Assembly: GCA_965178125.1 (NCBI GenBank)
Contig: OZ237771.1
Coordinates: 558,001-605,204 of the forward strand
Reading direction: 5' to 3'
Length of the DNA stretch: 47,204 nt
Source: Bilabrum cf. latius
Lineage: Eukaryota
Shown here one piece after another: positions 3,532 through 44,401 of the stretch (position 1 is its first letter; each line of letters begins with the position of its first letter). The position numbers and the translations under genes were made by a program. The notes under the pieces are model-generated. The model saw nothing but the letters and a program-made list of their open reading frames with translations, was not told the origin of the DNA and ran no database searches.

Positions 3532-6500
3532 ATGGGGTGTGGAAGTTCAAGCTTGGCAGACGATACTACTATTGAGCAGCCTCGCCCGGACTATGATGCT
3601 CTCTCTCGCATACCCGGCTCAGGAGAGCAACGAACGTCGGGAAGGGATTCAATGCTAGCAAAAATAGACATCGAACTCAACGAGTCATTTTCAGTTGGGC
3701 TTATCTCGTGCATGTCGGGCGCATTTCCTCATATCTGCATATCTGGCCCCTCCTCTGGCAATGGACAAGCTGAAATCCCGTCTGCGGTCGTGGTCACCAT
3801 CCGAGTGTTGGAGCGCCTCGGGCGAGAAGCATGGCCGACCGCCAGCCCTTCGAAGTTCTCGCTGAACTCCTTGGGGTTTACGTAGCGATCATTTTACTTA
3901 ATTCGCCGCCGCCTTTTGCTCGTAACCGCCGGGTGAGGCTTCCCTCCAATGGCTCAGTGCAATCAGGGAATCAATGCTCGGTCCCTTCGAATCCGTCCCT
4001 GCTGGCTCGTTTGTAACCAAATTTCGCAGGCTTCTTTTGGCCCAAGCAGCAGCAAGTGGTTGTAGGGTCACATCTGATGGCTTTATGCCTGTGCTGGACC
4101 CAGGTACTGGCATCGCCAATGAGATCCGAGACGATGACGGCGGTGCACAAGCGAGCGCTGTTAGTCACGGCAGCGGCGGAAAGCAATCGCAAAATGCAGA
4201 CAATGGAGCTTCTAGAAAGTATACACACAGTCAGAGCGGTCAATCATTGACTTCAGAAGGTGGAGCGCTCTTCGAGTGGAGAATCCGCAGCCTACTGTAG
4301 ACCTCCAGGAGGATTCGCAACTACGTGTGGCAGCGGCGCGCCTACGAGAAGCACGTGATCCGCAGGCGCAAACAACAGTAGAACGGATCACTGCAGGCCT
4401 CGGTGGACGAGTCCCTGGCGGGCGCCATGGGCATGATGTCTCCTGGCTCGCTGGAGGGATGCGAGTGGCTGCACACGGTGAGTGAGCAGGCCGTGGAGGT
4501 GGTGGCAGCCATCCGGGGGGCTCTGCTGGAGCACTCGGGGCATATGGCCGGCGGAGTGCAGCTTCACTCTGAGGCCGCTGGGGCTGGGGGAGATTATGCC
4601 TCTGAGGGCCGGCAGTCACTCGCTGGTGCACTGTCTCACCTGCAGCTGTACCCTCCATTTGCGAGGGGTGGCATCGGCAAGATGGTCTTGGGGCAGGACA
4701 AGGGCACGGGGCAGGTGCTCGCGCTCAAGGTCATGTCCCGGAAGGCCATGGACAAGCAGAAGATGAGGGGCAGGGTGCTGCAGGAGCAACGGCTCGCCAG
4801 TTTGCTTGCTTCGGACGGGATGCCCTGCTTCGTGCAGATGCACAAGTTCGTGCGGTCCCGCAATGCCGCGGTGATGGCCATGAGTTTCATGCCCGGGGGG
4901 GACCTGTATTCCCTGCTGGCAGGAGTGGGCAGGCTCTCAGAGGACAAGGCGGCCCCTCTGGTGGCGATGATGCTGTTGTGTGTGAGGGCCATGCACCGGC
5001 TGGGGGTGGCGCACAGAGACCTCAAGCCGGACAACTTCGTGATCGACAGGAGGGGGCACCTGCGGGTGATCGACTTTGGGCTGGCGGCCGATGAGCTGGA
5101 GATGCTGGGTCAGAGAACAAAGCACCAGCCGAGGTCGGTAAGGGAGAGGGAGAGCAAACTGGAGGAACAGCGCAAGAAGGATGAGAAGAAGCAGAGATAT
5201 AAGCAGGCTAAGCAAACGCTGAAGCATCTGCAGCAAGGACAGGGTCAAGGTCAAGCAGCCGCAGGAGATGCAGCAGAAGCAGCTGGTGCCTTTCTCCAAG
5301 ATGCGCTGCCTCCCCCCCCGTCCTCCACTTCCTCCAGGGGGGGCGATGCTTCGGACACAACCCCCACGGGCCTCCTGGGCACGCAGCCTCCCAGCGAGGT
5401 GCATCCAGAGGGCAGCAAGAGGAGGATCAAGAGCGGCACCTTGGCCTCTGGTGGGCCCTCCTCGGGGGCAGGAGCAGGGAAGCAGGATGCCCCTGTAACC
5501 GGCGGGCTGCAGTTGCTGGAGGGGGGGGACCCGGAGTCGAAACGGAGATCAGACAGGCGGGGCAGGGGTCGCGGCGATGAAGGTGTGGGGGCATCTGCCC
5601 TGGGTCTGGACCAGGAGCAGGGAATCCGGCGCGGGGGAGATGAGCGGCGCAGCGACACGGGGCTCGGTGTGGGGGCCAGGGGATATGGGCTCCTTGGATC
5701 AGGGCTAGCAAGTGACTCGAGCAAGGGTCGGGCTGCTGCTCGCCGGGCTATCAGGGTGGTGCAGCCCATGCCCAAGCTGGACGGGCAGGGCACGACCATG
5801 ATGCTGCAGGCCGAGTCCAGGCGGCTAGTGCGACTCAAGGGGCAGACTGCTCCCGGCACTGGGAGCAGCTCTTCTTCGCCCGACAGCGGGGGGACATCCG
5901 CGGGAGTGATGGTATCTGCCGGGACCCGAAATGACGCTGAGTCGAGGCCCGCTGTGGTGGGGGTGCTGCCCGGGCAGGTTGACCCCACCATGGGGGGTGC
6001 ACCTCGCAACCCGGGGGGTCGCCCCCCTGCCTCCCGGGGCTCTGTGAGCGACCGGCAGCGCGAGCACTTCCAGCGGCCCGCGCTGGTGGTGACCTCCACA
6101 TCGGTGGGACCTGACTCGAGCGGTTTGTAGGTCCCAGCTGGGGACAGCGGGGGCAACGCTGACCGCGTGCACAGCCGCGTGCACAGCGTCAGGGATGGTG
6201 ACGGAGACGAGCGGGACGAGGACGGTCGCACCACAGCCGTGGGCCAGCCGGGCATGCTACAGACGGGGCAGTTCTCCACCGTCCGAGAAGAGGACGTGGA
6301 CCTCTTGATGAGAGGGAGGCGATCTGGGGCACACTCGGGGTCTGCCTCTGGGTCCGGGACCAAGTCGAGCACCAGCTCTGAGGGTAGGAGGGGGAGGAGG
6401 GGGCATGCCGCTGGGGGTGCAGGCAGCAGCGGAGAGGCGCCCTCGAGCCCCGTTGCTGCCGGTGCCGTTCCATCCCCGAGCGGGCTGCAGTCGCTGCGGC

Positions 6501-8305
6501 CTGCTGGGCTGCAGGTAGACACGGCGGGTGCCATGCGGCACGCAGGGGTGGAGCCCCAGCCCGTGCTGCAGATGCAGCACGAGGTCGAGCAGCCAATGGG
6601 GGCGGGTCAGGGACGCGCCCTGGGCCAAGCCTCTGCACCTGGAGGCGTGCAGACTGCCGGTGGGAAGGCCACCACTTCGCCCGCAGCGGTTGCACGCAGA
6701 GAAGGTTTCTCCAATGAGAGGGCCGCTGCCGAGGGGTAGGGTGCTGCTGGAGGGGGGATTCGCATGAGGCAGCGCTTGGTGGACCGGGGCCAGCGTGCGA
6801 GAGTAAAGATGAGAAGGAGGTCTTCGCCCGGGCCTAACACCCCCTCTATCGGATAGGGCAAGTTCCAGGGTGTGCGGGGTGCAGCGCATGGTGGTGTGGC
6901 AGATGCCGAGGCGACAGCAGGTGCAGCTGATGCTGATCACGGCAAGGAGATGTCCACATCTGCTTGGGCCCGGCAGGGAGGCATGCTAGGAGATACGAAC
7001 TACAAGAATGACCCCGAGAACGGCGCCGGGTAGACGGGCGAGTCCAGCGGGCGGATGGCGTCGCTGCCCACCCCCAAGCGGCCCCCGGTGCCCCCTCCAT
7101 TCCTGAGGTACTCGCAGGTGGGCACCCGGTCCTATCTGGCACCCGAGACGATCGAGGGGGAGGGACATGGGTATGCCTGCGACTACTGGAGCGTGGGTGT
7201 GATCCTATTCGAGTCGCTCCTGGGCTACCTGCCATTCACAGACCGACGGTCTACCCAGGTGACTTTCAGGAACATCCTGGCGGGCCGCATCCGGTGGCCC
7301 AGGCGGCAATCATCCTGGCCCAGCGAGGACGCGGTGGATCTGATCGAGGGCCTGCTGCACGTGGACCCAGACGAGAGGTACGGGGCCGGGGGGGGCGGGG
7401 GCACCGGGGACGAGGCGGGAGAGGTGTCGGACCAGCGATGGAAGGACCTGCAGCAGCATCCGTACTTTGTGAACAACGGTGTGGACTGGTCCCGGCTGTA
7501 CGTGGAAGATGGTCCGTTTGTTCCCCAGCCCAGTGGGGAACTAGACACTGGCTACTTCGAGGCTCCCAGCCGGCCCATCTCCAGCATTGACTACCAGGAG
7601 AGGCAGAAATCGGACAACGGACTGACGGTGGACTTCAGCAAGGGCAGAGGAGGTAAGAGCAGGGGTGCAGACGACCCCATGCCGGCTCTGCATGGCGCTG
7701 TGGACGCCGCTTCCTCGGACCATTCGGCGGCCCCGCGTCCCGCCGTGCTGCACACCCTAGCGGGTGGCCCCGAGGCCAGCGCAGATGTGACGCTGCACTC
7801 GGGCAAGGGAGGGGGCAGCACCGGCACGACAGCCAACAAGAGCAAGCAAACCAGCGCAGGCGTACACATGCACGTGCAGGTGGGAGATGAGGGCCGCAGC
7901 GACTCGGGCGGCTCTGTGGGCGTGGACGGAGCCGAGTCTGGGGACGATGAGGATCTGGGGGGGCGAGGGCGCCTGGGGGGGGCGACGACTGCGCTGGGGC
8001 GAGTGGCACAGCAGCGGGGGCGCAAGGGCAAGGGCAAGGGCAAGGACAAGGACAATGGCAGATACAAGGACAGGCTCTATGCTGGAAAGGCGGATGGGGG
8101 GCTGAGGCAAGCGGCAGCAGCAAGCCGCAAAGGCCAAGGGAAAGGAAAGGGGAAGGGAAAAGGAAGGGGAGACCTCGAGGATTCTTCTTGGGGTGGCGAT
8201 GACAGCGGCTTGTCGGGGTCTGGACTCAGCGAGGGGCCGTGGCGCATCGCACAGGCAATGCAGCGCAACCAAGACCGGAAGAGCGGCAAGCGGACCAGGT
8301 CGTGA
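3532..8305 (+). CDS. AGC-family Ser/Thr kinase with a very long insert between DFG and the activation segment (Greatwall/Rim15/IRE- or NDR-like); intron 3933..4029
   Basis: MGCGSS N-terminus; ALKVM, HRDLKPDN and DFG in 4403..6130; VGTRSYLAPE, DYWSVGVILFE, HPYF and DTGYF in 7055..8305. Same frame, joined by TAG at 3883, 4298, 4379, 6128, 6737, 6854 and 7031; ends TGA. Confidence 0.88.
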
Positions 8306-19300: not shown

Positions 19301-22300
19301 GCAAGAGCCCTGGCTTGATGCCGCTGCCCTAGTCGGCAACTGCCATCCCCAGCCCAGAGATGGATTGCTGCGCGCCTTGGACCAGGTACAGCCCGGCGGT
19401 GCACGCAGCAGCACATACCCCATCCGCGAGCAAGCCGAGCCCCCTGCCCGCCAGCACAGATGCAGGTGCTCCCGCCTAGGGTGCCGGTGCCACCCCCGGA
19501 GAGGGTGCATCGACGGCCGCCATCGCGGCCCCTCTCCTGGCCAGCAGGGGGGCGGCCTCAGCCACTAGGGAGCACGTCTCTTTGGCCAGGAAGGAGCCAA
19601 GACGAGCGGCCTGGTCCTGGGAGCCCGCGCATCGCAGGGCAGAGGGCAGCACGGCCCCGCCCGCGTTGGCGGGGCCCAGGCCGAGGAGGGCCTGGCTCGC
19701 CCGGTGGCACCTGCTGGCCATTTCGAGGCAAGCCACCCAGGCCCGAGTGCCCTCGCGCTCATCGAAGGGGCCCTTGGAACCGCCGGCAGCTGATTTGCCA
19801 TCGCCGCTGCTCGCCGTGGGTGCCTCTCGCTGCAGGCCGGGCCGATCCATCAGAGCAGATGCACTCACGAAACCGCCGCCCCCGAAGCCGCCAGGAGTCG
19901 GTCGAGCCACGATGCCGCCAGGGCACCGCCCTGCCCCACCCGCCTGGGCCCCCGCCCCCGCCCCCGCCCCCGCCGCCCACCACCTGGCAGCACTGCCCCC
20001 CTCCAGCGCCCGATCCGCGCCCACTCCCGGCCCTATCCCCGCGCCCGCCTCACCGTCCGAGTCGCTGTCAAAGCCCCCTCCCACCCCGTCCTCGTCCTCC
20101 CCGTCCTCCGCACACTCGTATTCCTGAAAGACCCACTGGGAGGCAGCACGCTGCGCCATCGCGACCAGCCAGGCGCACCGACTCACTGCCACAGCCCCCG
20201 CAGATCGCACCGCGGCCAGTTGACCGGGCGCCACCGCCCCGTGCGCCCCGCTCGCCCGCCTCCTGGCCGCCTCCGCCGCGACTCCCAGCACCCGGTCCGC
20301 CTCCCTGGCCGCTGCCTGCAGCTCCTCCGCCAGACCCAGCGAGGCTCGCAACGGACCCGGCCAGGAGCTCACGAGCGGCTGCAGCACATCCAGCGCCAAC
20401 CGTACGCTGTTCGAGTCAAGTGCAGCCGACTGCACCCCTGCGTCCACCGACAGCCCGCCCCCCGCCCCCATGCCGGCCCCCGCGCCAGACCCAGACCCAG
20501 ACCCGCCGCTGGTCCCACTGTCCTCGCTCCTTCCGTCGGCGTCCTCGCCCACGGCCCACTCAAGCGCGTCACCGCCCACCAGTCCAGCACCCGCGTCCAG
20601 TCCCAGGGCCCCCGCCACCGCCGCCTGTCCCTTGGAGGCAGGGGTGGCGGCTGCAGCAGCAGCAGGACCCCGGAGCTGCTGCTGCTGCTGCTGCGGGTGC
20701 TGCTGCTGCCACCCGGCGCCCTGTGCAGTGGCCCAGGGACCAGAGCCGCCCTGTCTGCCCGCGTCACTTTTGACGCCCCCGGTCTCCTCGTCCCCCACCT
20801 CCCCGTCATCATCGTCCTCGGAATCCAGCCCCGATGCATCCGACTGCCACCCGCCCGCCTCTAGCGACCGCAAGGCGGCCGCAGGGGATGCAGAGGGATC
20901 TCGCTCGCCGTCCACCGGCCCGGTCTCTTGTGCGGCGCGCAGGAGCTGCCTCACCCCGTCCGCGCGAGCCCACCCGTGCTGCCGCCCCAGCCAGGCCCCC
21001 CCCGGCCCCCTCCTCGAGTTGGGGTGCAGCCGGGAGGCCTCGTGTCTGGCTAGCAAGCGGGCGATGGACCGCAGCAGCTGGCGGTCAACCCCAACTCGCA
21101 GCATGCGCTGCTTGAGCGCATCGGGTGCGCGGTGCAGGCACTGCAGCGACTCGTGCCATGCCTGCAGGCAGCGCATGCTGACGCCCGACCTGGGGTGCGA
21201 GATGGCCCGTCCCAGCCATTGCAGCAGCACGGCCCCGGTCTCGTTCGCAGCCGCCTCCTGAGCGCGCTGCCCCTTGCGCTGTGCCTCAGCGGGGGAGCAC
21301 CCCTCTGCCACCAGCAGCGCTGTCTCCGCCTTGCGCACTCCCACTGCGCTCAGCAGAGTGTCTTGGTGGTAGACTGCCAGGGCGGACACAACCTGCACCA
21401 CGCACCGGCACCGCACCGCTCCCTGCTCAGCTGCATCAATAGACCCGATGGTAGCCTCGCCTGCCGAGCACCATGCCTTCCAAGGCGCCTCCAGCTGCCG
21501 CAGCCCCATGGCCAGCGCCCGACTCGCCTGGCAGGATCGCCTCGCTGCCCGGGCCTGGCTCACCGCCGCTCGCTTGGCCTGCTCCCCGCGCCCCGGGGCT
21601 GCCAGCACCGTCTCCAGCGAGGGTCCCATCACTGGCTGCTGCTGGACGAGACACAGGGTGGCCTCTGTGGCGGCCTGGGCCACCGAGTCGCAGCGGGCGG
21701 CGAGGCAATTCAGCACCGCCTACAGCCGGGGCACGAGGGGCCCGGGCCCGCCACTGCCGCCGGTCTGGGCCAGAGCGCGAGCAGCCTCTTCCTCCTCTCT
21801 GTCCGCCGCCAGCAGATCCTCGGGCCGCAGTCGCAAGGCCCTGCCCTCGTGGTGCGCCGTCCACTCGGCCCAGGCGGACAGGCAGCCCAAGGCCTCCTCA
21901 CTGGCAGCGGCCGCGGGGCTGCCTCGCGCGCCACCGGACCCCCGCGCCGCCAACCGAGGCGCGTGCGAGGCCACAGCTGCGAGGCAGCCCCGCCTGAGCC
22001 ACGCCCCCGCCTGCTCCAGAGCCACCGCCCTCCTCGATCGGGCCGCCCCCGAGGCAGCCGCCTGCGCGCCCGCCTGGCTGCTCCTGTCGGCCTGCAGAGC
22101 CGCGCGCTGGGCGCTCTTGGCAAATGCCCGCGCCTGCAGCGTAACGTCCTGCGCCTCCTCGGGACAGTATCGCAGCACTCGCGCCGCTACTCTGGCAGTG
22201 CTTGGCCCGTGCTGCCCCGCCAGGCCGGTGCACATGGTCCTCAGGAAGCTCTGCGCGGCGTGCACCTCGGCGGGGAGCGAGCCCGCCCCGGGGGCCTCGG

Positions 22301-22960: not shown

Positions 22961-23139
22961 CACGAGGATAGCTGATACTACTCAACTAAATAAAGCCTGT
23001 ATTGAGTGGGGCAAGTCAATAAGTGGAGCACAGGGCACGAGAAATGGGGTCATTTTTGAACTAAGTGGTTGCAACCACTGCAATCGCAGAGTGAAGAAGA
23101 AGACACAAATAAGCCGTTGCCCAAACAGCAAATATTGCG

Positions 23140-23655
23140 ATGTCCTCGAGCGGTGATCGAAATGTTATCGTCACTACTGATGGAACCGAATACGTGGAAC
23201 GGGAAGATGGGCAGAGGATACTCGGCTTGGGAGTAGGGACATTTATTTCAGTCGTGGTTATCATCGTTGCTTTTGCGTTGTCGGCAGTTGGGCGAGGAAC
23301 GAACATGAGGCTATTGATGAATACAGTTGGGATCACACTTGTAGGAATGACAATATTATTCCTATGGCTGGTACCCAGGGAGTCAGCCTTTGAGCCAGTC
23401 ATTGATACGGGCGCAGATGTGAGGCTCGCGTATAGCTGTTCGGGTGCTATGATAGTCTTTACCCAGCGTATCAACCCTACTTGTTCGACCTTTCGATTTC
23501 TTCTGTACCTGCAGAAACCTACGTAGACGTTCTATATTGGGCTCGTGTTCATAGTCTTGCTCATGTTCCTGTCGCTATTAGGTTCGCTTGCGGTATTGGC
23601 AGGCATGGCTTGCCTCACACCAAAGACAGCGGTGCCACTAGCATACGAGCTGTAA
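23140..23655 (+). CDS. TMEM218: TMEM218-like ciliary transition-zone membrane protein (3 TM); intron 23419..23514
   Basis: RILGLGVGTF...LWLVPRES...FYIG pattern matches TMEM218 (VLGVGAGVF...LLFPR...FFIG). The third TM helix lies after an in-frame TAG at 23524; ends TAA. Confidence 0.75.
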
Positions 23656-23772
23656 TCGTTGGATTGTATCAACCACATCAGTATCGTGGCGCTGAAAAGG
23701 TCGGGTCCACTGTATTGGTGGAGACCACAGCAACGAGTCCCACAGCGGTGGCGGGGCATGCCAGTGGCACGC

Positions 23773-24649
23773 TCAGAACTTTTCTTTCGATGGCCGCACA
23801 TCCAGTTCGTGGGTCCAGCAAGAAGGAGGCTGGTCATGCAGAGCCATGTAGGTGCTCGCGATGGCATCCGGCGCGATGAGCGTGGCCTTGTCTCGCCCCT
23901 CGTACCTGCCGGGCAGATCCACCTGCCCATCCACGATCAGGTGAGCCACGTGGATGCCCTCAGGCTGCAGACGCCTCGCCATGGACTAGGCAGTGGCTCG
24001 CAGTGCGAACTTGGGCGCTGCCAGCCCCAGGAACTTGGCCCCTCCGCGGAGAGAGGCCGTGGCCCCTGTGAAGAAGATGGAACCCTTGTGGGACGACGAA
24101 TCCAGCCCTGCAGCCTCTCCCCGAGCCAGCATCTCCTTGGCGGCGCGCTGGCCCACTGTGAATCCAGCGAGAGCCCCGACGTCGAAGGCGGTCCGCATGT
24201 CCGCTGGTGTGATGTCAAGGAGATCTTTCGGGATGTACGAGCTGCGAAGAACGGGGACATCCGACAGCGCGTATCAGAGTTGGACAAATTTTGTTGATTT
24301 GGCCGCTTAAGAGTTGCCCAAAGCTGTGGTACTGCGTGGCACCTTGCACTTACCCCGCATTATACAACACGAAGTCCAGCCTGGCTCCATCTTCCAGGAA
24401 GCGGTCAAAGATGCCATTCACAGCCGCGGGATCAGTAACATCGCACGACATTGCAACCAGATTTGCCTGCACGCCCGCGTCGGACTCGGTCACGAGCTTG
24501 TCGAGCTTTGCTTGCGTTCGCGCAATAATACCGACGCGAACCCCACGGCCCGCCAGCGCCCTCGCAGTTGCAATACCAATCCCCGGCCCAGCTCCGAATA
24601 CAAGAGCTAACTTTTTTGATACCTTTGCGCCTGCTGCAACCGCTGCCAT
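23773..24649 (-). CDS. Short-chain dehydrogenase/reductase; intron 24242..24353
   Basis: GAGPGIG, YNAG, FTGATASLRG, KFALRATA*SMARRLQPEGIHVAHLIVDG, WTHELDVRP; TAG at 23986; ends TGA. Confidence 0.92.
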
Positions 24650-24821: not shown

Positions 24822-26132
24822 TCAATCGCTTCGCAGTTCTCCCTCTGCGTCCCCAAGCTCACTCCATCGAATGCCCCCTTGCACACGCTCCACGACCCCG
24901 ACGCACTGCTCGCTGACTGTAAGCTCACCATCCCCGGGCAGCAGGCATGTGCAGCGCGGGTCTTTGCTTCGACTCAGCCGCAATAACACGGCTGCCCGCA
25001 CTCCTTCCCTGCGCCCAGCAGGCACACTCGCCCCGCCCCTATCCCATGCCGCCTGCAGCAGCCCGGCCACGGCCCTGTCCGCCCTCGACCCACGCGTGGC
25101 CTGCAGAGCTTCTGGACAGGCTCTGTCCCCGGGTGGCGCTTTCCCCATCGGTAGGAAGGTCACCAGCACCCTGCCACCCGCCCCTGCCCCCCTGCGCGCC
25201 CCCTCGTCCGCCCTGGCCAGCTAGTACAGCTCCTGCGCTGACGGCACACCTGCACGGCCCTGCGCCTGTCGAGGCACCAGTGCAACTAGCACAAAAGGGG
25301 CTCCCCCGCCTCCTCCGCCTCGACCGCCCCCCGATGGGGGCTGCAACAGCGCCGGCACCAACGGGGCCACGCTCGGGGCATGCCTGCGCACGAGGTCGGA
25401 CAGATCGCGAGGCACCCACGTCGCCTGCGAGAAGGGAGTCGGAGCTGAGCCTGCTTCTACCGAAGACTTCTACCTCGCGTCACCGCTGCTATTGCGCCCA
25501 CTGCCGCCGCTATTTTCGCGCGAGGATTTAGTAGCTTTCGCGGTGCCAGACCTCGTCGGATCCGCCTCTGCAGATCGCCTGTTGGCTTGTGGGGGCGGAC
25601 CGTCTGCGTCCTTCTGCTACAATGCTAACAATACTGCAAGCAATCCACCGAGTAATATGGCTAGCATTGTTGGGCTCTGCATCACTTGCTGCAGGAAAAG
25701 CTCAAAATACCCCATTTGGGGGCCTCGCTCCGAACGATAATAGCCACTCCCGCTACCCCACGAACCCCGTTGGTGGTGAACGTGCCGCAGCTAGTCATAC
25801 TCTCTTCGCTTTACTGGGTCGCTGAGCACCTCGTGCGCCTCCCTGAGCTTTATGAATGTCTCTTCATCGCCGCCTTTGTCTGGATGCAAATCCCTAGCTA
25901 ACTTCCTGAAAGCTCTCTTGATTTCTGGTTCGGAAGCTTCCTTATTTATACCTAGTACTGCATAGTGGTCCTGAGATACGTCGGGCGGGGGACTGGTAGC
26001 CTGCCGGTAGCTGCGTTGCCTGTGCTGGCGCTGGTGTCCAGTGTAGAAGAAGCGCTGGCGCTGTGCCTCGCAGGTTGATAAAACAACGCACCAAATAAGG
26101 AGAGCAGATGCAGCAAAGGGTACTAGTTTCAT
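24822..26132 (-). CDS. DnaJ-domain protein with signal peptide and TM helix (~436 aa)
   Basis: DHYAVLG...HPDKGG...[15 protein letters not shown]; continues in frame through TAGs at 25791, 25617, 25470 and 25221 into track ORFs 25221..25415 and 24822..25169; ends TGA. Confidence 0.85.
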
Positions 26133-26256: not shown

Positions 26257-27641
26257 TCAACGCTTGACCCACTGGAACTTCTTCCTGGCCTTCTTGCGGC
26301 CTGGCTTCTTCCTCTCCACCATGCGCGGGTCCCTCCGCAGCATCCCCAGCCGCTTGAGCTGCGGCTGCAACCCGGGATCGAACCTCGCTAGCGCCCTCGC
26401 CAGCCCGTGCTTCACAGCTCCTGCCTATCCGCTGGGTCCGCCCCCCTTCACGTCCACACGCACGTCAAAGGCCCCCGCGATGCCCAGGGTCAGCAGGGGA
26501 GAGAGCGCCTCCCGCCGGTCCTCCATCAGAGGGAACACCTCGTCCAGCCGCTTCCGGTTCACTGACACGGAACCGTCGCCCAGCCGAACCAGTACGTTCG
26601 CCTGGGCCGTCTTGCGCGCCCCCCTAGCCCCCGCCCACCCTCTGCTGGAGCGGCGCGGAGCCCGGATGAGCGTCTGCTCCATGCGCACCTGCTTGCGGGA
26701 GGCCCCCCCTCCCGCGGCGCCCCCGTCCGTCTCCTCGCCCTCGGAGCGAGCCATCTCGAATAGCATCCAGAAAGGCATCGCGCGTGGGGTGCGCACCGAT
26801 GGGTCCCAGTCCAGGCTGCTCACGTACCCCGTGCCAGTGAGCATGCGCTGCAGGTAGGGGTCGTTAAGCACCTTCTCGCGCTCCTCGGGCCGAAGGGTGT
26901 CGAGGCCAGCCGACAGGCGACGGCCCACTTCCTCCGGGCGAGTGCCTTCCACTGCAGAGCCGGGGCCTGCACCGCCCCCGTACGCTGCTGTTCGCACCGC
27001 CGCGTCTTCCTCCAGCTGGCCCCCCGCCACTGCTGATCCGTCAGCGCCCGCCGCGACAAAGTCGACCTCGTCCTTGCTCAGCTGAAAGGCCGCCGATTTG
27101 CCGCGAGAACCAGACTGGGCCTCAGCCCTGAGACGCTCTTGCTCAGCGCGAGCATGCGATCGTGCAAGCCTATCCGAAGCCAATTCGTAGTCCGTAGGAG
27201 AGGCAACATGCCGAATGTTGCCCAACTCGTCTTCTACCTGCGGTGGTACAGTGGAGTCCAAGAGCGTAAGTCATCATTCAACATGCTACGATACGATCAA
27301 TCGGCTCATGAAGTGGTACACCGTGCCACACTCGGGCTCACCTCAACTTCCTCGAGCAGCTGCCAAGAATCCTTCCCATTTTCGCCAGGAATTCGCTTCA
27401 TGACTCCATGCACGTGCCTTGGTGGCTTGCTTAGCTCTTCAGCCCGAGTTTGCTGGCTAGATTCCTTCCCAGCGTCTCGCTGAGGGTCCCACTCCCAATC
27501 ATCACGAAGGCCGCTCTGCCATCTCCGAGCTGCAACACACCTTCCGCTCAACTAGCCAGCAGATGGAACCAATCCGTGAGAAACATTACTAACAACTTTT
27601 GAAAGCGCCCTAAGTCGACCGACAGCCTACGCCACCCGCAT
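26257..27641 (-). CDS. MRPS9: Mitochondrial ribosomal protein S9 (uS9m); intron 27238..27341
   Basis: [56 protein letters not shown]. Arg-rich, acid-free presequence [16 protein letters not shown]...; TAG at 27627, 27552 and 26425. Confidence 0.93.
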
Positions 27642-27807: not shown

Positions 27808-29793
27808 TCACTCATCGTCATCCGAACCGCTGTCCCCTCCGGCTCCCCCGTCCTCGTCTTCGTCCTCGTCATCATCACTGGAGCTCTCGTTGCCCCCGCC
27901 CTCCTCGAAATCAGAATCCTCTTCGTCCTCGTCCTGCATGGCCGCCGCCCCACCCGTCGCCGGTCCATCGTCATCATCGGCTCCCACTGCCACCTGGTAC
28001 CTCTGGCCCTTGGTGCCCTGCTGCTCGTCCGTGGTTACCGACAGCTTCTTGCCGCGCAGGAAGCGGACCAGACCCGCGTGCTCCCGGCGCTCGATGGACG
28101 TGAATGTGTACTCGCGCCCCTGCTCCCCGCCGGCCCCCCTGCACCGAATGACCATGTCGAACGTTCTCGAGGCCACCCCTGCGGCCCCCATGCCCATGCG
28201 CTGCATCTCGATGCCCAGGATCTCCGAGTGACGAATGGACGTGGCCGGCTTGTGGATGAAGAAGAAGGACCGGTCCAGGGGGAACAACAGTCCGTCGTTG
28301 CCCTTGAGCGCGCTCCGGAATGCCTTGTGCCCCGTGCGACTCACGAACTCGCCCGTCTTGAAGATGCGCTTGCCCGTGATGTTCCTCAGCAGCGAGGCCA
28401 CCACCTTGGGCAGCTCGCCCTCCACCTTGGCCGGGATGTTGCCGTACTTGCTCTTGCGCGCATCGGCGCTCGCCAGCACGTCAATGGCGGCGTGCACCAC
28501 GTCCAGCTGCATGACCAGGTGGGGGTACCTCTGCTGGCCCTGCCGGATGGGGTCGTCGAGAGAGATGACCACGTTCACACGGGTGCTGTCTGCCGTGGTC
28601 TGAGAGGGGCGCGGCAAGTAGTACATGCGGCTGATGCTCTTGTAGGCCAGTCGGTACTCGTAGGTCTTCCCGACCATGCGCATGGCCGTGGGATACATCT
28701 CGATCTTGTACCTTCCCCTCGGGGTCAGGAAGAGCGCCTGCGACTCGGGGATCTCCGCCACCAGGTCACCGGAGGACTCCGCCCCGCCCAGGTCTGCCAC
28801 TTTGGCCATGGCTGCCTGCAGCGCCTCCCCCGCGGTCTTGCCCTCGCCCAATTCCTTGGCTTGTTCCTTGAGCTCGGGATGCTCGGGGGGCACCCACAGC
28901 TTCATTTCCATGAGCACCTCGTCCTCGGGGCCTGCGGTATCATCGGCCTCATACTGAAGAGACACCTCCCCGCGACCGGGATAAGCCAGGTGGGCCAGTC
29001 CGTCCAGCGGCAAAAAACACATGGGCCGGCCCTTGGGGTCGTGCAGCTCCAGGCGCTTGCCAACCACTGTGGGCTCACCCCAGTTGCCCCCGCCGACCGC
29101 CATAGTCCCGTCTGTCAGAGCAACCCTCCCTTCCAGAGCTGTGTCGAGCGCCTCGGACAGGCGCTGCCTGGACCTAGGGTCGAATCCATCCAGCACCAGA
29201 AGCTTGTCGCTGGCCCCGCGGATTCGAAGCTGGGCGCGAGCCGGACCCTGCGGGATCCACTCGAGGGACTTGATATCACCTGACTTGACCTGTGAGTGCA
29301 AGATGATTTAGACTATTCGTGGAATGTGCGTGATTGAATTTGGAGGCGCGGATAGCGAGCGGGACACTAGGAGGAACGCCGCGTGCTCGATCGGCGACCG
29401 GCGAATTGCTGCCGCAATTCCACTCACTTTCTCGATTCTGCCATCATCATTTCGCCACGTAATTCCCTTGTCGGCTATATCGACGGTTCCAAGGTTCTGC
29501 GTGCACCGCAGGTGAGAAAGGGTTCGCTATCAGCACGTGGCAGACGAAAGGATACGCAGGAACACGCACGGCATATACCTGGACAAACACTTCAAACGAA
29601 GAGTAGACAAAAAGTGTTTATAGGTGTTGACAAGACGAATGTCCCCTTGTCTCACTGTGGTGGCTCCGCACAAGAGGATATTTCGGAAAGCAACAATCAC
29701 GTTCGACTTCGCAGACGATGCAGCTGAAGACGAGGATGAACTAGATTCCATGGGAGCCTGTTCGCTCTTTGATTCTACTGCCGAAGCCGCCAT
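27808..29793 (-). CDS. SSRP1: FACT complex subunit SSRP1/POB3 (no HMG box); introns 29290..29427 and 29497..29655
   Basis: GGNWG, FLTPRGRY, LDDPIRQGQQRYPHLV, GLLFPLDRSFFFIHKP, SRTFD and an acidic tail; 69-nt middle exon NLGTVDIADKGITWRNDDGRIEK; ends TGA. Confidence 0.95.
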
Positions 29794-29957: not shown

Positions 29958-32819
29958 ATGGCGGCTGCTCCCCGAGTTGCTGAGAAAGGGAGTAAACGTT
30001 TCAACTAGTTGCGCGAGCGAGGAAATGATTCGCAGGCCATCCTTCAAGCAAATGGCGTTAGAGTGTGGGTCAACAAGCAAGTTATTGGATTGAATAGTGA
30101 GCATGCAGCTATAGAGCTGGCCGTGTTGACACAGTCCGCCATTCTGCTGTAGTCATCACCCGGCTAGTCGAAGGTGGATCCATTGCTGCGACTGAGTACC
30201 TTTGATATCGTGGGTGCTCGAGTTGCATCGGCAGGACCCATCCGCCCTACAGACCCAGATCCACCTGTGCCTGGGGCAGACGATAGGCTTGTGAACGTGG
30301 TGGCTTGGCCCCGACCGGCGGAACCGGAGGGTTTCGCGTCTGGCTCGCACGACGCCCAGGGCGGGTGCTGCTCCTCCTGCGGGGCATCCTCCACTGCCAT
30401 TGACCTAAGGCCGCATGGATCGCTGCAAGCGGCTGCCGCTGAAGCCCGCGCAGCCGGCCTGTCCGTATCCGAGTCGGCGCTGCGGAAGGCCGCGGGAGCA
30501 ACCGGGCGCGGGGCTGCGCTCCGAGGGGATGGGGGGGCGGGCCCAGGCACGGCTGGGGCGGCTCCCTCTACGCATGCATCGGATATGCACGCAGCACACG
30601 CTGCCCCGGTCGCGCCTGTCCCTGGCAGTGCACTGCACTTCGAGCACGTCAGCCATGTTCGTGATGCTGGTGCGAAGCTTCCTTGGTGTGATGAGTGTGG
30701 TGGCACCTCAGGCGAGGTGCGGCAGCTCGAGCCCGATATTTCGGACGCACCGGAAGAGGGGGGCAGTCCGGTCACGGGCAGTGATGGTGATGGTGATGGT
30801 GATGGTGATGGTGATGGTGGTGGCGAGGCAGGGGCAGGGGCAGGAGCAGGGGCAGGGGCCAAAGGAGGTTCGATCCTTCGGCAGGCCTCGAGACACCAGG
30901 CCCGATGGAGGAACGAGCCGAGGGCAGCGCCCTTCCGGCCTGCGCAGGTGAGGGGGAGGGACCCCCCTGGGCGGCAGAGGGTGCTCCTGACGATGCTGCT
31001 GCCTTCCGCGCGGGAGGCCACCGACTGGGCGAGGGCGCTGCAGCGACTGGGCCGCGGGCTGCCCGTGGTGCGGCACTCAGGAGGCGAAGAGGGTGGAGAA
31101 GGGAGCGATGTCCCGCCGGGGGCCGTGCTGCCCGCCCCCCGGCGCCGCCTTCTGGTGATTGCATCGGACGCAAGTGGAATGGGTACGGCCAAGGATCTTC
31201 TCGGCGACCACTGGCGGCCCTTGCTGGAGCAGGACGGGGGCTGCGAGGTGGAGGAGATGTGGACTAGCGCGCCGGGGGATGCGCAGGGCATGATGCAGCG
31301 GCTGGACGTGAGCCGGGTGGATGCTGCGGTGGCCTGCGGGGGCGATGGTATCCTGCACGAGATGGTGCAGGGGCTGCTAGGCAGGGAGGACTGGGCCAGG
31401 GCACGGCTGCTGCCGCTGGGGCACCTCCCTGCGGGCAGCGGCAACGGGATGAGCAGGAGTGCCGCCTCTGCAGCCAGGGAGCCCTGGGACCGCGTGAGTC
31501 CTGCCTTCTTGCTGTGCAAGGGGGGTGTCTCGCCGCTGGATGTGGCCGCCACAGATGTGTGGCCCGAGGGGGAGAAGGCCCCCAGGCGGGTGTACTCCAT
31601 CCACCAGATCGAGTGGGCGGTGGCGGCGGACATCGACAGGGAGAGTGAGGCTTACCGGTGCCTGGGCCCCGACCGGTTTGCTGTGGCTGGCCTCGTGCGG
31701 GCGTTCTGCGTGCGGTGGTACGGGGGCAGGCTGTTCCTGCTGCGGGCAGGGCACAAGGGGGTGGGGCCTGTGGGCGCTGGGGGTGCCTCGTATGAGCCAG
31801 GCCATGGCTTAGACCGCCCCGGTGAGCACAAGGAGGGGGAGAGCGCGGCAGCTGCACCGAGTAACAGTGGCGGGATCACGGTATCTATGGGGGCGGGAGA
31901 CCCCCAGGAGGCCTTGCTGGGCACGGGCACTTCATCTGCCTCTGCAGCAGGAAACAAGCAGGCCACGGTTTCCTCTTCCAATTCCAGTGGACTGGTAGAC
32001 CCCTCTGTCTTCCGGAAGGCCTCTAGCCCAGCCTTTGACTGGAGGGACGACTCCACCCGGTCCCACGAGCAAGCCTCTTCGGCGGCTCACACGGTGGTAC
32101 TGGCCTCTCCTGATCTTCCCGCTGATGCCATCCACGGGGAGAGCGAGCCGGCCGCAGCAACGAGCGGGGCAGCGGCTCCGCGGGACGAGTAGGAGGCTCA
32201 GCCACAAGACGGCAAGCAGGAGCAGGCCACTCGTCACACCCTCAGGAACGTGCACCTGCCTCCCTTGACCTCTACGATCGGTGGAGTGGGGGGCCCAGGA
32301 GCACCCCTTACTCAAGCCACTGGATCCACTCCAGACGTACCCAGGGGGGCGGGGCCAGGAGCCCCGAGCGAGGACTTGGGGGGCCGGCGGCGCACCGGTG
32401 GGTTGGGTGCCGGGGGCCGGTGGGAGGTGGTGGAGGGCACCTTCTCGTACTTTTGGGCCTGCAGCTCCACGCACCAGAGCTACGACGTGAGCGCTGCCCC
32501 GCACTCTCGGTTCGACGATGGGGCGGCGTGGGTGACGCACGCGGGCCCGGCTCGGTGCTGCGGGATGGTGCAGCTGCTGCTGGGGCTGGACGAGGACGGG
32601 GGGCTGACGAGGCTGCCCTGGGTGGATGAAGACCCCGTGGTGGCGTGGAGGCTCGAGCCGGGGCCCAAAGCGGTGGCAGGCACGCAGGTGATGGTGGATG
32701 GGGAGGCGGTCGGGCATGGCCCGGTGCAGAGCGAGATCCACAGGGGCCTCCTGAGGCTCATCACCGGGGTCCCGATGGGAGATGCGCTGCCTGCAGAGGA
32801 TAGAGCCGGTCTTGTCTAA
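29958..32819 (+). CDS. Sphingosine kinase / DAGK-catalytic family lipid kinase (~953 aa)
   Basis: CGGDGILHEMVQGL, LPAGSGNGM, ADIDRESEAYRCLG..RF and C-terminal VMVDGE. Halves join via TAG 32190, with three more TAGs upstream of 30174; ends TAA. Confidence 0.9.
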
Positions 32820-35581: not shown

Positions 35582-36110
35582 GCCCCATCCACCGCATGCA
35601 CACTCAACCTGCTTGCACCGGCACACGAAACATGACCCAATCCACCGCACGCACACCCAACCTGCTTGCACCAGCACACGAAACATGGCCCCATCCACCG
35701 CACGCACACCCAACCTGCTTGCACCAGCACACGAAACATGGCCCCATCCACCGCACGCACACCCAACCTGCTTGCACCAGCACACGAAACATGGCCCCAT
35801 CCACCGCACGCACACCCAACCTGCTTGCACCAGCACACGAAACATGGCCCCATCCACCGCACGCACACCCAACCTGCTTGCACCAGCACACGAAACATGG
35901 CCCCATCCACCGCACGCACACCCAACCTGCTTGCACCAGCACACGAAACATGGCCCCATCCACCGCACGCACACCCAACCTGCTTGCACCAGCACACGAA
36001 ACATGGCCCCATCCACCGCACGCACACCCAACCTGCTTGCACCAGCACACGAAACATGGCCCCATCCACCGCACGTACACCCAACCTGCTTGCACCAGCA
36101 CACAAAACAT
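35582..36110. repeat. 53-bp subtelomeric tandem repeat, ~10 copies
   Basis: Unit ccatccaccgcacgcacacccaacctgcttgcaccagcacacgaaacatggcc; terminal copies diverged. Confidence 0.97.
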
Positions 36111-36246
36111 TAGGGTTAGAGGCCCCGCACGGAACCTGAACGGAGAACCTTCTTCCTTGGTTCTCCCTAATTCTTCTCGAGGAAACTTCCAGGAAAGCAT
36201 CCGAATATGCAACTTTGAGCGCGGGCTGGAGCTTCAATTAATGCAA

Positions 36247-37388
36247 TAGGTTTAGGGTTAGGGTTAGGTTAGGGTTAGGGTTAGGGCTAGGGTATCAGGG
36301 GGTCTTTAGGTTTTTTAGGGTTTTTTTTAGGGTTAGGGTTAGGGTTAGGGTTAGGGTTAGGGTTAGGGTTAGGGTTAGGGTTAGGGTTAGGGTTAGGGTT
36401 AGGGTTAGGGTTAGGGTTAGGGTTAGGGTTAGGGTTAGGGTTAGGGTTAGGGTTAGGGTTAGGGTTAGGGTTAGGGTTAGGGTTAGGGTTAGGGTTAGGG
36501 TTAGGGTTAGGGTTAGGGTTAGGGTTAGGGTTAGGGTTAGGGTTAGGGTTAGGGTTAGGGTTAGGGTTAGGGTTAGGGTTAGGGTTAGGGTTAGGGTTAG
36601 GGTTAGGGTTAGGGTTAGGGTTAGGGTTAGGGTTAGGGTTAGGGTTAGGGTTAGGGTTAGGGTTAGGGTTAGGGTTAGGGTTAGGGTTAGGGTTAGGGTT
36701 AGGGTTAGGGTTAGGGTTAGGGTTAGGGTTAGGGTTAGGGTTAGGGTTAGGGTTAGGGTTAGGGTTAGGGTTAGGGTTAGGGTTAGGGTTAGGGTTAGGG
36801 TTAGGGTTAGGGTTAGGGTTAGGGTTAGGGTTAGGGTTAGGGTTAGGGTTAGGGTTAGGGTTAGGGTTAGGGTTAGGGTTAGGGTTAGGGTTAGGGTTAG
36901 GGTTAGGGTTAGGGTTAGGGTTAGGGTTAGGGTTAGGGTTAGGGTTAGGGTTAGGGTTAGGGTTAGGGTTAGGGTTAGGGTTAGGGTTAGGGTTAGGGTT
37001 AGGGTTAGGGTTAGGGTTAGGGTTAGGGTTAGGGTTAGGGTTAGGGTTAGGGTTAGGGTTAGGGTTAGGGTTAGGGTTAGGGTTAGGGTTAGGGTTAGGG
37101 TTAGGGTTAGGGTTAGGGTTAGGGTTAGGGTTAGGGTTAGGGTTAGGGTTAGGGTTAGGGTTAGGGTTAGGGTTAGGGTTAGGGTTAGGGTTAGGGTTAG
37201 GGTTAGGGTTAGGGTTAGGGTTAGGGTTAGGGTTAGGGTTAGGGTTAGGGTTAGGGTTAGGGTTAGGGTTAGGGTTAGGGTTAGGGTTAGGGTTAGGGTT
37301 AGGGTTAGGGTTAGGGTTAGGGTTAGGGTTAGGGTTAGGGTTAGGGTTAGGGTTAGGGTTAGGGTTAGGGTTAGGGTTAGGGTTAGGG
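36247..37388 (+). repeat. Telomeric (TTAGGG)n tract 1: degenerate 36247..36326, then 177 perfect copies
   Basis: Read directly from the sequence. Confidence 0.99.
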
Positions 37389-37448
37389 TATCTATTATAA
37401 AGTCAGGGACAGGGTCGGGGAAAAATATTTTCATCTTCACTTTTTGAC

Positions 37449-39410
37449 AAAATCCTGCGGGATACGATCTCGGCAACCACAGGAGATATGAAGACCGTTC
37501 AAATTGCGTTGGGACGGCCTAGGGCCACATCATTGGCCAAATGTTCCTCAGGTTCCGCTTTTGACGCGCGGCGCCAATATTGGGCCTTGAAGATTTTCAT
37601 GCTGAAATCCTGCGGGATACGATCTCGGCAACCACAGGAGATATGAAGACCGTTCAAATTGCGTTGGGACGGCCTAGGGCCACAACATTGGCCAAATGTT
37701 CCTCAGGTTCCGCTTTTGACGCGCGGCGCCAATATTGGGCCTTGAAGATTTTCATGCTGAAATCCTGCGGGATACGATCTCGGCAACCACAGGAGATATG
37801 AAGACCGTTCAAATTGCGTTGGGACGGCCTAGGGCCACAACATTGGCCAAATGTTCCTCAGGTTCCGCTTTTGACGCGCGGCGCCAATATTGGGCCTTGA
37901 AGATTTTCATGCTGAAATCCTGCGGGATACGATCTCGGCAACCACAGGAGATATGAAGACCGTTAAAATTGCATTGGGACGGCCTAGAGCCACATCATTG
38001 GCCAAATGTTCCTCAGGTTCCGCTTTTGACGCGCGGCGCCAATATTGGGCCTTGAAGATTTTCATGCTGAAATCCTGCGGGATACGATCTCGGCAACCAC
38101 AGGAGATATGAAGACCGTTCAAATTGCGTTGGGACGGCCTAGGGCCACATCATTGGCCAAATGTTCCTCAGGTTCCGCTTTTGACGCGCGGCGCCAATAT
38201 TGGGCCTTGAAGATTTTCATGCTGAAATCCTGCGGGATACGATCTCGGCAACCACAGGAGATATGAAGACCGTTCAAATTGCGTTGGGACGGCCTAGAGC
38301 CACATCATTGGCCAAATGTTCCTCAGGTTCCGCTTTTGACGCGCGGCGCCAATATTGGGCCTTGAAGATTTTCATGCTGAAATCCTGCGGGATACGATCT
38401 CGGCAACCACAGGAGATATGAAGACCGTTCAAATTGCGTTGGGACGGCCTAGAGCCACATCATTGGCCAAATGTTCCTCAGGTTCCGCTTTTGACGCGCG
38501 GCGCCAATATTGGGCCTTGAAGATTTTCATGCTGAAATCCTGCGGGATACGATCTCGGCAACCACAGGAGATATGAAGACCGTTCAAATTGCGTTGGGAC
38601 GGCCTAGGGCCACATCATTGGCCAAATGTTCCTCAGGTTCCGCTTTTGACGCGCGGCGCCAATATTGGGCCTTGAAGATTTTCATGCTGAAATCCTGCGG
38701 GATACGATCTCGGCAACCACAGGAGATATGAAGACCGTTCAAATTGCGTTGGGACGGCCTAGAGCCACATCATTGGCCAAATGTTCCTCAGGTTCCGCTT
38801 TTGACGCGCGGCGCCAATATTGGGCCTTGAAGATTTTCATGCTGAAATCCTGCGGGATACGATCTCGGCAACCACAGGAGATATGAAGACCGTTCAAATT
38901 GCGTTGGGACGGCCTAGGGCCACAACATTGGCCAAATGTTCCTCAGGTTCCGCTTTTGACGCGCAGCGCCAATATTGGGCCTTGAAGATTTTCATGCTGA
39001 AATCCTGCGGGATACGATCTCGGCAACCACAGGAGATATGAAGACCGTTCAAATTGCGTTGGGACGGCCTAGGGCCACATCATTGGCCAAATGTTCCTCA
39101 GGTTCCGCTTTTGACGCGCGGCGCCAATATTGGGCCTTGAAGATTTTCATGCTGAAATCCTGCGGGATACGATCTCGGCAACCACAGGAGATATGAAGAC
39201 CGTTAAAATTGCATTGGGACGGCCTAGGGCCACATCATTGGCCAAATGTTCCTCAGGTTCCGCTTTTGACGCACGGCGCCAATATTGGGCCTTGAAGATT
39301 TTCATGCTGAAATCCTGCGGGATACGATCTCGGCAACCACAGGAGATATGAAGACCGTTCAAATTGCGTTGGGACGGCCTAGGGCCACAACATTGGCCAA
39401 ATGTTCCTCA
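37449..39410. repeat. 155-bp satellite, ~12.6 copies (variant A)
   Basis: Exact 155-nt period (track ORFs at 37580, 37735, 37890...). Confidence 0.98.
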
Positions 39411-39446
39411 GATTCATTGTACTTCATTCAGTGCAAGTATGGCGTA

Positions 39447-41927: not shown

Positions 41928-42039
41928 TGTGGGTTTGGGAATCCAGTGGTTATTGACCGATATTCAATGTTGTGGCTCGTTCTACGTAGCCATATGTATG
42001 CGTTAACCTCCTTGGTCGATACATCGCTTTGACATCAGG

Positions 42040-42354
42040 TATTCGTTGGCTTATAGTCAAGACTAAATAGATTGCGTCCTGGCTCCTACTATCCCGTCCT
42101 AACGGGTCACTGGCTGGCACTCTGGCAAGCTCCTCTCACAAGCTGGCCCAGCTGCCACTGACCTCAATTGGTATCCGCCTGGCTGCTTTTCACTCGTTAT
42201 CGGAGGAGGGTTCCGCATCGACAGCTGCCAGGAGCGCCTCAACAGCGTCCACGTCTGCTGCATTGAGATCTCCTTCCGCCGTCTTCTCGAGGGCCGTCAT
42301 CAGGCCTACGAGCGTGCCCAACCCGTCGTCCCTCTCTTGAATTGTTTCCTGCAC
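42040..42354 (-). pseudogene. 3'-terminal fragment (last ~54 codons + 3' flank) of the element ORF
   Basis: About 21 mismatches in 315 bp versus 44252..44566 by manual alignment; ends abruptly at telomeric repeats. Confidence 0.9.
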
Positions 42355-43169
42355 AGGGTTAGGTTAGGGGTTAGGGGTTAGGGTTAGGGTTAGGGTTAGG
42401 GTTAGGGTTAGGGTTAGGGTTAGGGTTAGGGTTAGGGTTAGGGTTAGGGTTAGGGTTAGGGTTAGGGTTAGGGTTAGGGTTAGGGTTAGGGTTAGGGTTA
42501 GGGTTAGGGTTAGGGTTAGGGTTAGGGTTAGGGTTAGGGTTAGGGTTAGGGTTAGGGTTAGGGTTAGGGTTAGGGTTAGGGTTAGGGTTAGGGTTAGGGT
42601 TAGGGTTAGGGTTAGGGTTAGGGTTAGGGTTAGGGTTAGGGTTAGGGTTAGGGTTAGGGTTAGGGTTAGGGTTAGGGTTAGGGTTAGGGTTAGGGTTAGG
42701 GTTAGGGTTAGGGTTAGGGTTAGGGTTAGGGTTAGGGTTAGGGTTAGGGTTAGGGTTAGGGTTAGGGTTAGGGTTAGGGTTAGGGTTAGGGTTAGGGTTA
42801 GGGTTAGGGTTAGGGTTAGGGTTAGGGTTAGGGTTAGGGTTAGGGTTAGGGTTAGGGTTAGGGTTAGGGTTAGGGTTAGGGTTAGGGTTAGGGTTAGGGT
42901 TAGGGTTAGGGTTAGGGTTAGGGTTAGGGTTAGGGTTAGGGTTAGGGTTAGGGTTAGGGTTAGGGTTAGGGTTAGGGTTAGGGTTAGGGTTAGGGTTAGG
43001 GTTAGGGTTAGGGTTAGGGTTAGGGTTAGGGTTAGGGTTAGGGTTAGGGTTAGGGTTAGGGTTAGGGTTAGGGTTAGGGTTAGGGTTAGGGTTAGGGTTA
43101 GGGTTAGGGTTAGGGTTAGGGTTAGGGTTAGGGTTAGGGTTAGGGTTAGGGTTAGGGTTAGGGTTAGGG
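42355..43169 (+). repeat. Telomeric (TTAGGG)n tract 2, ~135 copies, with irregular first units (TTAGG, TTAGGGG)
   Basis: Read directly from the sequence. Confidence 0.99.
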
Positions 43170-43230
43170 TATCTAATATAAAGTCAGGGACAGGGTCGGG
43201 GAAAAAATATTTTCATCTTCGAATTTTGAC

Positions 43231-44092: not shown

Positions 44093-44401
44093 TGCAAAAA
44101 TTTCTTTGATGTCAGTGGGGTCACTTGATAATGTCACGTTCAAAATATGGGAATCACGTCTTTGTGATGATAGTCGTTTGATAGTCAGTAGTTCTGTTGA
44201 GATGATGTTTATGGCAGTGGTTTATTTTTGGAGGATTGTATTAATACCAGATATTCGTTGGCTTATAGTCAAGACTAAACAGAATGCCTCTTGGCTCCTA
44301 CTATTCCGTCCTAACGGGTCACTGGCTGGCACATTGGCAAACTCCTCTCACAAGCTGGCCCAGCTGCCACTGACCTCAATTGCCATCCGATTGGCTGCTT
44401 T

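Follow-up and report, generated by a model that had tools for sequence, protein, structure and literature searches.

Does a TAG triplet that interrupts the open reading frame (ORF) of a ribosomal protein gene, exactly where the protein family carries glutamine, mark a broken gene or a codon that the organism translates? The question is raised by a gene for ribosomal protein uS9 in a 47,204-nucleotide stretch of DNA assigned to Bilabrum cf. latius (GenBank assembly GCA_965178125.1, contig OZ237771.1, positions 558,001 to 605,204 of the forward strand), which was analyzed as a whole and is referred to here as the window, with positions counted from its first letter. The window very probably derives from the nucleus of a protist with a GC-rich genome and few introns, in which cytoplasmic translation reads UAG as Gln and retains UAA and UGA as stops. 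With such a nuclear code, the TAG at 26427..26425 would simply encode Gln in a functional and expressed nuclear gene for the mitochondrial form of the protein, uS9m.

Positions 26425-26427 read ‘cta’ on the plus strand, i.e., TAG on the minus strand, from which uS9m is encoded; the triplet is codon 371 if the coding sequence starts at an ATG at 27641. It is flanked by two ORFs delimited from stop to stop, one of 281 codons (27270..26425) ending in ...DVKGGGPSG and one of 55 codons (26424..26257) followed by TGA. Joined across a TAG translated as Gln, the frame matches the PF00380 Ribosomal_S9 profile from position 1 to 121 of 121 (ORF residues 217-337) at 141.3 bits and an E value of 2.7e-41, the family cut-off being 22.5 bits. 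Because this match is full-length and gapless, the TAG must lie inside the domain rather than in an intron or in the tail. The motif is encoded as GGGPSG-TAG-AGA, and the family's GGGxxGQxGA is complete only if the TAG is read as Gln. Of 8000 candidates scored in a homolog search, 279 reached E <= 0.001, and in the alignment of the 120 listed ones the column opposite the TAG holds Q in 119 and K in one. In the solved uS9 and uS9m chains shown by phmmer, bacterial S9 included, the TAG likewise aligns to the Q of GGGxxGQxGA. Q columns make up two of the 35 near-invariant columns of uS9; since Gln is rare among such columns, and since a second gene described below displays the same coincidence, the placement of the TAG on this Gln exceeds what would be expected by chance. 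Downstream of the domain, the tail (...KKFQWVKR) is basic and ends K-R, with the TGA stop codon at 26259..26257 directly after it. An earlier, sequence-only reading of this DNA had placed the TAG at the conserved Gln of uS9 and had described an essential C-terminal tail lying intact beyond it, and both statements are confirmed by these data. It had also proposed alignment to the Pfam Ribosomal_S9 profile and had named a column other than Gln as the outcome that would count against it; the column proved to be Gln.

The gene is composed of two exons on the minus strand. Exon 1 (27342..27641) opens with the putative ATG at 27641, encodes a presequence-like N-terminus and contains two further in-frame TAGs, at 27629..27627 and 27554..27552. 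It is followed by a 104-nt intron (27238..27341, GTGAGC...CCGCAG) and by exon 2 (26257..27237, stop included), which encodes the whole Ribosomal_S9 domain together with the tail. The spliced frame from the ATG at 27641 amounts to 426 codons. Counting exon 2 alone, 216 residues extend N-terminal to the domain, and the N-terminus is basic, with the first acidic residue not before position 47. The best match among solved structures is the plant mitochondrial uS9m chain 6xyw_Bh (E 4.1e-31), and other top matches include further uS9m chains; bacterial S9 is nearly equal (1.3e-29), whereas chloroplast chains reach only ~1e-18. Together with the long presequence-like extension, these matches support the mitochondrial type that had been proposed for the product, which is designated here as a predicted uS9m. 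The start at 27641 should be regarded as putative, since the RNA-like contigs considered next stop at 27636-27641 and a later start at Met 81 is thus possible; were Met 81 used, both TAGs of exon 1 would fall in the leader.

Assembled contigs from sequencing runs bear directly on whether the TAG reaches the messenger. The triplet is identical, with zero other letters, in contigs of four runs (X1 rec 8, X5 rec 14, X6 rec 18, and X7 rec 27). The contigs of X5, X6, and X7, which derive from two studies, skip the 104-nt intron located 0.8 kb upstream of the TAG (joint 27235>27340, ‘cut +2’) and yet span the TAG, while the X1 contig retains the intron and is unspliced. A second intron, that of a short-chain dehydrogenase gene (24353..24242), is removed exactly in X6 rec 16, where 24241 is joined to 24354. 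The contigs of X5 to X7 are taken to represent RNA because two GT..AG introns have been precisely removed. The uS9m TAG is thus present in mature mRNA, where it has been neither edited nor spliced out, and UAG is a sense codon there at a position that requires Gln. Two ways of removing the triplet before translation were considered and rejected: RNA editing of UAG to CAG, given that the spliced contigs show zero other letters, and an intron across the TAG, given that the alignment is gapless and the spliced contigs keep the TAG.

These observations also address the reading in which this copy has been killed by a nonsense mutation, is a pseudogene or carries a sequencing error, with an intact copy elsewhere doing the work. 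A single C>T change suffices to turn CAG into TAG, and Q is shown at the uS9 site by P0002, a protein from the sequence collections that is 99% identical to the product with one A>K difference. A second collection protein with Q there, P0001, is 78% identical and comes from a 1,438-nt contig. Against a dead copy, however, the TAG is the same in four runs and is carried by the spliced transcript, and the ORF is otherwise intact to its family-typical ...KR end. Moreover, uS9m exon 1 and 11 other genes together contribute 61 more in-frame TAGs, and a conserved Gln column of a second gene is also occupied by TAG. A dead copy is therefore considered extremely improbable. The sequence-only reading had allowed that its case would fall if another intact copy existed and this one were untranscribed; the gene is transcribed and spliced, and the TAG is kept.

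The second gene is the short-chain dehydrogenase gene (23773..24649, minus strand), which comprises exon 1 (24649..24354), the 112-nt intron already mentioned (24353..24242, GTAAGT..TCGCAG), and exon 2 (24241..23773, including TGA). Its TAG, at 23986..23988 on the minus strand, takes the place of the Q of ...LRxxAQSMARE... in the context ...KFALRATA-TAG-SMARRLQPEGIHVAHL, and X6 rec 16 spans 23986-23988 with zero other letters. The triplet stands opposite Q in the solved structures 3h7a_A (E 3.6e-29) and 3ak4_A. An exhaustive HMMER search returned 2,616 homologs with E <= 0.001, the best 150 of which were aligned; among the 148 that cover the column, Q is found in 142, E in four, and A and G in one each. 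Decoding of UAG as Gln predicts the tryptic peptides GGGPSGQAGAVK across the uS9m TAG and ATAQSMAR as its dehydrogenase counterpart. The uS9m codon had been singled out as the best site for assigning Gln, and it does provide good evidence for that assignment, but it is not the sole good site, the dehydrogenase TAG being equally informative.

Taken together, the two columns weigh on the possibility that UAG is a sense codon for another residue, namely Glu, Leu, Tyr, Lys or Trp. There is precedent for such codes: in the available text of two reports, a rhizarian and some ciliates translate UAG as Leu, and other ciliates UAR as Glu or Tyr (PMC5304391; PMC11687900). Conservation is also lacking around most TAGs of the window, so that any polar residue could stand there. 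The uS9 column (Q 119, K 1) and the dehydrogenase column (Q 142, E 4, A 1, G 1), however, share no alternative to Gln, and the occurrence of a TAG within an (ATG CAG)n run and of others beside CAG runs also fits Gln. Assignment to another residue thus appears very unlikely.

The dehydrogenase TAG may be shared with a relative. P0230 (JGI, 94 aa, 75% identical) stops one residue ahead of the TAG column, P0249 (JGI, 58 aa, 84% identical) starts 12 residues beyond it, and P0360 (ENA, 69 aa) starts at the first Met past it; P0230 and P0249 are each recorded with one 979-nt JGI contig. The simplest reading of these records is that a relative with ~75-84% identity probably has TAG at the same column as well, since standard-code gene calls from two collections split its gene at that codon. 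For uS9, a scan of metagenome contigs with the family alignment kept 80 loci with a best identity of 56%, mostly over the conserved domain, and none was a close relative. The contig of P0001 is spliced, because the protein sequence crosses the exon junction.

The collections themselves are inconsistent in their gene calls for this organism and its relative (P0002, P0121, P0230, P0249, and P0360). Calls derived from Logan read TAG as Q and use GTG/TTG-type starts, JGI and ENA calls instead split at TAG, and database-wide statistics inherit the inconsistency. The starts of P0001 and P0002 resemble gene calls of the prokaryotic type, with GTG read as M in P0002. Next to the dehydrogenase gene, an ORF at 23137-23740 on the plus strand resembles a membrane protein with four helices, carries one TAG and ends in TAA; it is convergent with the dehydrogenase gene and overlaps its 3′ part.

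The usage of the three stop triplets over the whole window extends the argument beyond the two conserved columns. The 14 segments examined from 13 genes total 10,570 codons; TAG occurs in frame 62 times, and TAA and TGA are absent from the interior. In the two other frames (off-frames) of these segments, the counts are 143 for TAG, 43 for TAA, and 333 for TGA. The TAGs are spread over 12 of the 13 genes at ~0.6% of codons, with a maximum of 14 per gene, and are missing from the segment of the SSRP1 gene. By ORF, eight of the 13 genes end in TGA and five in TAA. In-frame TAAs are confined to the outermost parts of the ORFs delimited by TGA, at most 35 codons from the 3′ end or 74 codons from the 5′ end. 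Terminal TGA follows family-typical C-termini in uS9 and the dehydrogenase, and a TAA is found 16 codons beyond the point where human sphingosine kinase 1 (SphK1) ceases to align. UAA and UGA thus appear to be kept as terminators, in what is a small sample of 13 genes.

Six TAGs are flanked on both sides by homology in one frame: the one in uS9, four in a kinase gene, and one in a sphingosine-kinase-like gene. For the latter two genes, the evidence is independent of how ORFs were defined. The kinase TAGs (at 6128, 6737, 6854, and 7031) lie in a 681-codon insert that separates the DFG motif from the APE motif (5087..7129, plus strand) and contains neither TAA nor TGA, for which base composition gives a probability of 3.6e-5. 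The TAG of the sphingosine-kinase-like gene (32190..32192, plus strand) is located between two conserved parts read in one frame, and the 220 codons that separate these two parts aligned to human SphK1 include this TAG and no other stop. Frames of 1,400-2,100 codons free of TGA are also present, and their length indicates coding constraint irrespective of ORF definition; equally unaffected by that definition are the similar frequency of TAG in and out of frame and the restriction of in-frame TAA to the vicinity of ORF ends. Across a first list of 12 ORFs delimited by TGA, TAG was counted 63 times, CAG 380 times, and CAA 115 times. TAG is often paired with CAG and also occurs in the contexts K-Q-Q-TAG and M-TAG-M-Q-M-Q-M, the latter within the (ATG CAG)n run, and all of these fit transitions between CAG and TAG.

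The same counts bear on the possibility of a standard code in which UAG is leaky by virtue of a near-cognate tRNA-Gln, or of an ambiguous code in which UAG is stop or sense depending on context. Near-cognate tRNA-Gln is described as reading through UAG in organisms with the standard code (PMC13192750, in its available text), and 13 genes are too few to tell whether any gene ends in UAG. In 12 of 13 genes, however, TAG accounts for ~0.6% of codons and for up to 14 positions per gene, and readthrough at low efficiency would then leave almost no full-length product and would truncate an essential ribosomal protein before its functional C-terminal tail. Nor is TAG avoided in frame, the 62 occurrences there being close to the 71.5 per off-frame. 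A leaky or context-dependent stop is therefore judged highly improbable. A further possibility is that UAA and UAG both encode Gln (NCBI table 6) and that the scarcity of TAA only reflects a GC-rich genome. Table 6 is the commonest variant nuclear code, according to the available text of PMC11687900, and TAA is indeed scarce overall, with 43 occurrences against 143 for TAG in the two off-frames. Yet none of the 10,570 codons of the 13 genes is an interior TAA where ~19 would be expected if it were tolerated like TAG, and in-frame TAAs are found only near ORF ends, where terminators, leaders or introns are expected. The chance that table 6 applies is accordingly put as vanishingly small.

Several points weigh against the reassignment of UAG alone to Gln, or temper the evidence for it. 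The lack of interior TGA is in part built in, since TGA was used to delimit the ORFs and TAA to trim them. Occasional termination at UAG, as in an ambiguous code, is compatible with a sample of 13 genes. Strongly conserved columns hold only two TAGs, the others being in poorly conserved or low-complexity sequence, and the sites that can be aligned to distant homologs are three only (uS9, dehydrogenase, and DnaJ). The third of these, at 25791..25793 on the minus strand, falls right after the J domain (REYD-TAG-LRH) in a variable column that holds Q in Escherichia coli DnaJ (YDQ) and T in DNAJB9, and it offers weak support. Full-length homology does not extend to three of the frames (cc713, o814, and big2189) or to the DnaJ ORF past the J domain. 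Codon-position GC around 58 TAGs fails to separate coding from non-coding sequence: GC content at the third codon position (GC3) exceeds that at the second downstream of 33 TAGs and upstream of 37, a similar and weak pattern. The kinds of the X5 to X7 runs are guessed labels (X5 being ‘probably DNA’), so that their status as RNA depends on the two GT..AG joints, and no RNA holder is recorded for the sequencing runs of the stretch. Each of P0001 and P0002 could represent a CAG allele, a relative, a second copy, or a protein in which the gene caller translated TAG as Q; neither is counted as support for Gln or for a second intact copy. Finally, a tRNA scan found no tRNA gene in the window, and an Rfam scan of the window was also empty; the gene for the release factor eRF1 lies outside the window.

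If UAG is decoded as Gln, the mechanism may be modeled on published cases. A tRNA-Gln with a CUA anticodon, one base removed from tRNA-Gln(CUG), would decode UAG, and the release factor eRF1 would have weakened or lost its recognition of UAG (both by analogy with the available text of PMC5304391 and PMC11687900). Under such an arrangement UAA would remain a stop because a CUA anticodon cannot pair with it.

GC content of the window ranges from 50 to 73% in 2-kb steps, TTAGGG arrays are present, and introns are few, of ~100 nt, and of the GT..AG type. The gene used for placement is that of the FACT subunit SSRP1/POB3 (27811-29748, minus strand), which has three exons sharing one frame, lacks an HMG box and contains a main exon of 499 codons without TAG. 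Its GC3 of 0.83 is the highest among the genes, followed by that of uS9m exon 2 (0.78), which has one TAG; highly expressed genes may avoid this codon. The best named matches of SSRP1 are to Phytophthora (38%), Peronospora (36%), and diatoms (~33%), with other proteins reaching 99% and 76%, and the match in a protein atlas gives the family only (POB3/SSRP1). In a quick single-gene tree of 38 rows picked from 89 hits, the careful search being unfinished, the window falls within a starred clade of seven rows that is nested in a starred clade of 20 rows comprising oomycetes, diatoms, and other ochrophytes. Alveolates, rhizarians, and haptophytes were not represented among the 89 hits. The organism is therefore tentatively described as stramenopile-like and as having no close named relative; the TTAGGG arrays, the GC range, and the scarcity of introns are compatible with this placement and not decisive. 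A viral or phage origin of the window was rejected in view of its spliceosomal introns, SSRP1, the mitoribosomal protein, and the telomere-type repeats.

Near-identical copies of the stretch occur in runs X1 to X7 under three organism labels (A, B, and C) and in three studies, and the organism may accompany other cultures or be filed under them. When contigs were placed on the window, depth spikes and many false joints appeared at 11738-12404 and 20409-21075; the loose ends at these positions correspond to GC-rich low-complexity sequence and CTG/GCT-type coding repeats and are not structural variants.

The remaining genes of the window add detail on its content. The kinase gene with the long insert extends over 3866-8302 on the plus strand and encodes a Greatwall-like AGC kinase, with 5loh_A as its best solved match and its domain split by the 681-codon insert, which is of low complexity; its N-terminal TAGs (codons 145 and 172) fall outside the part that can be aligned to solved kinases. 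Further genes encode a RING protein and an ARS2-like zinc-finger protein, the latter on the basis of a weak match. For the 1771-residue ARS2-like ORF, no homolog with E <= 0.001 was found among 8000 scored candidates, which were most likely filled by low-complexity matches. An ORF at 168-1274 (plus strand) with three in-frame TAGs shows a weak resemblance to the Mrr_cat restriction-endonuclease domain (PF04471, E 9.7e-6, 26.1 bits against a cut-off of 21), and a search of solved structures with it gave no match. A coiled-coil-like ORF on the plus strand includes two coding tandem repeats, one at 14705-14996 with a 75-bp unit in 3.9 copies that are 100% identical and have a TAG in each full copy, and the other at 15833-16065 with a 60-bp unit, also in 3.9 copies.

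A block of repeats occupies 35582-44098. It begins with a 53-bp tandem array (35582-36110) and a TTAGGG-type array of 1.1 kb (36247-37389), followed by a 155-bp satellite at 37450-39415 that recurs at 43232-44098; between the two satellite tracts are a 22-bp array of 112 copies (39450-41923) and a second TTAGGG-type array (42355-43170). A stop-free ORF of 920 codons at 39270-42029 was rejected as an artefact of the 22-bp array. The TTAGGG-type arrays are either interstitial, or the region is subtelomere-like or mis-joined.

Changes to the nuclear code are rare, and those that separate UAG from UAA are rarer. Codes in which UAA and UAG both specify Gln, as in table 6, are used by ciliates, dasycladacean and ulvophyte algae, and hexamitids, and also by oxymonads and Amoeboaphelidium. 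The code proposed here resembles theirs in that UAG is read as Gln, one base away from the CAG codon and the CUG anticodon, and differs in that TAA is never interior to the 13 genes and ends five of them. Separations of UAG from UAA are described, in the available text of two reports, for Iotanema, one rhizarian, and a few phyllopharyngean ciliates (PMC5304391; PMC11687900). Iotanema spirale (Fornicata) translates nuclear UAG as Gln with UAA and UGA as stops, UAA being the primary terminator, according to the available text of PMC5304391. As in the window, UAG alone is reassigned, to Gln, with UAA kept, and the mechanism predicted there is also alike, with tRNA-Gln(CUA) and an altered eRF1 (PMC5304391). 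The eRF1 change of Iotanema is T32G, at a residue in contact with the third-position G (PMC5304391). Iotanema is, however, an anaerobic metamonad represented by a transcriptome, whereas the present lineage is unrelated, genomic DNA is available for it, and TGA ends eight of the 13 genes and TAA five. For the phyllopharyngean ciliates Hartmannula sinica and Trochilia petrani, the available text of PMC11687900 gives UAG as Gln with UAA as the preferred stop, and describes suppressor tRNAs with CUA anticodons in related ciliates that read UAG as Leu. Hartmannula and Trochilia share with the window a change of UAG only, to Gln, and the wide use of UAG as a sense codon; unlike them, the window has a GC content of 50-73%, TTAGGG arrays, ~100-nt GT..AG introns, and an SSRP1 that groups with stramenopiles. 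In the rhizarian exLh and in a clade of uncultivated phyllopharyngean ciliates, UAG is Leu and UAA is a stop (PMC5304391; PMC11687900, in their available text). The uncoupling of UAG from UAA is common to these and to the window, in which, by contrast, both conserved columns are Gln columns and Leu is present in no homolog at either.

In a full-text search of an available library of papers, no stramenopile was found to be described with an altered nuclear code. We regard as evenly balanced the proposition that the window records an independent and unpublished origin of a code with UAG as Gln and with UAA and UGA as stops, in a stramenopile-like lineage, as the first in its supergroup and shared with at least one environmental relative (~75-84% identical). 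Because standard-code gene calls break at every TAG, annotation and protein databases would be fragmented for this lineage as long as the code is not set correctly. If the proposition is true, such a further origin, in a GC-rich genome already represented by genomic DNA and transcripts, would open the underlying changes in tRNA-Gln(CUA), glutaminyl-tRNA synthetase, and eRF1 to direct study.

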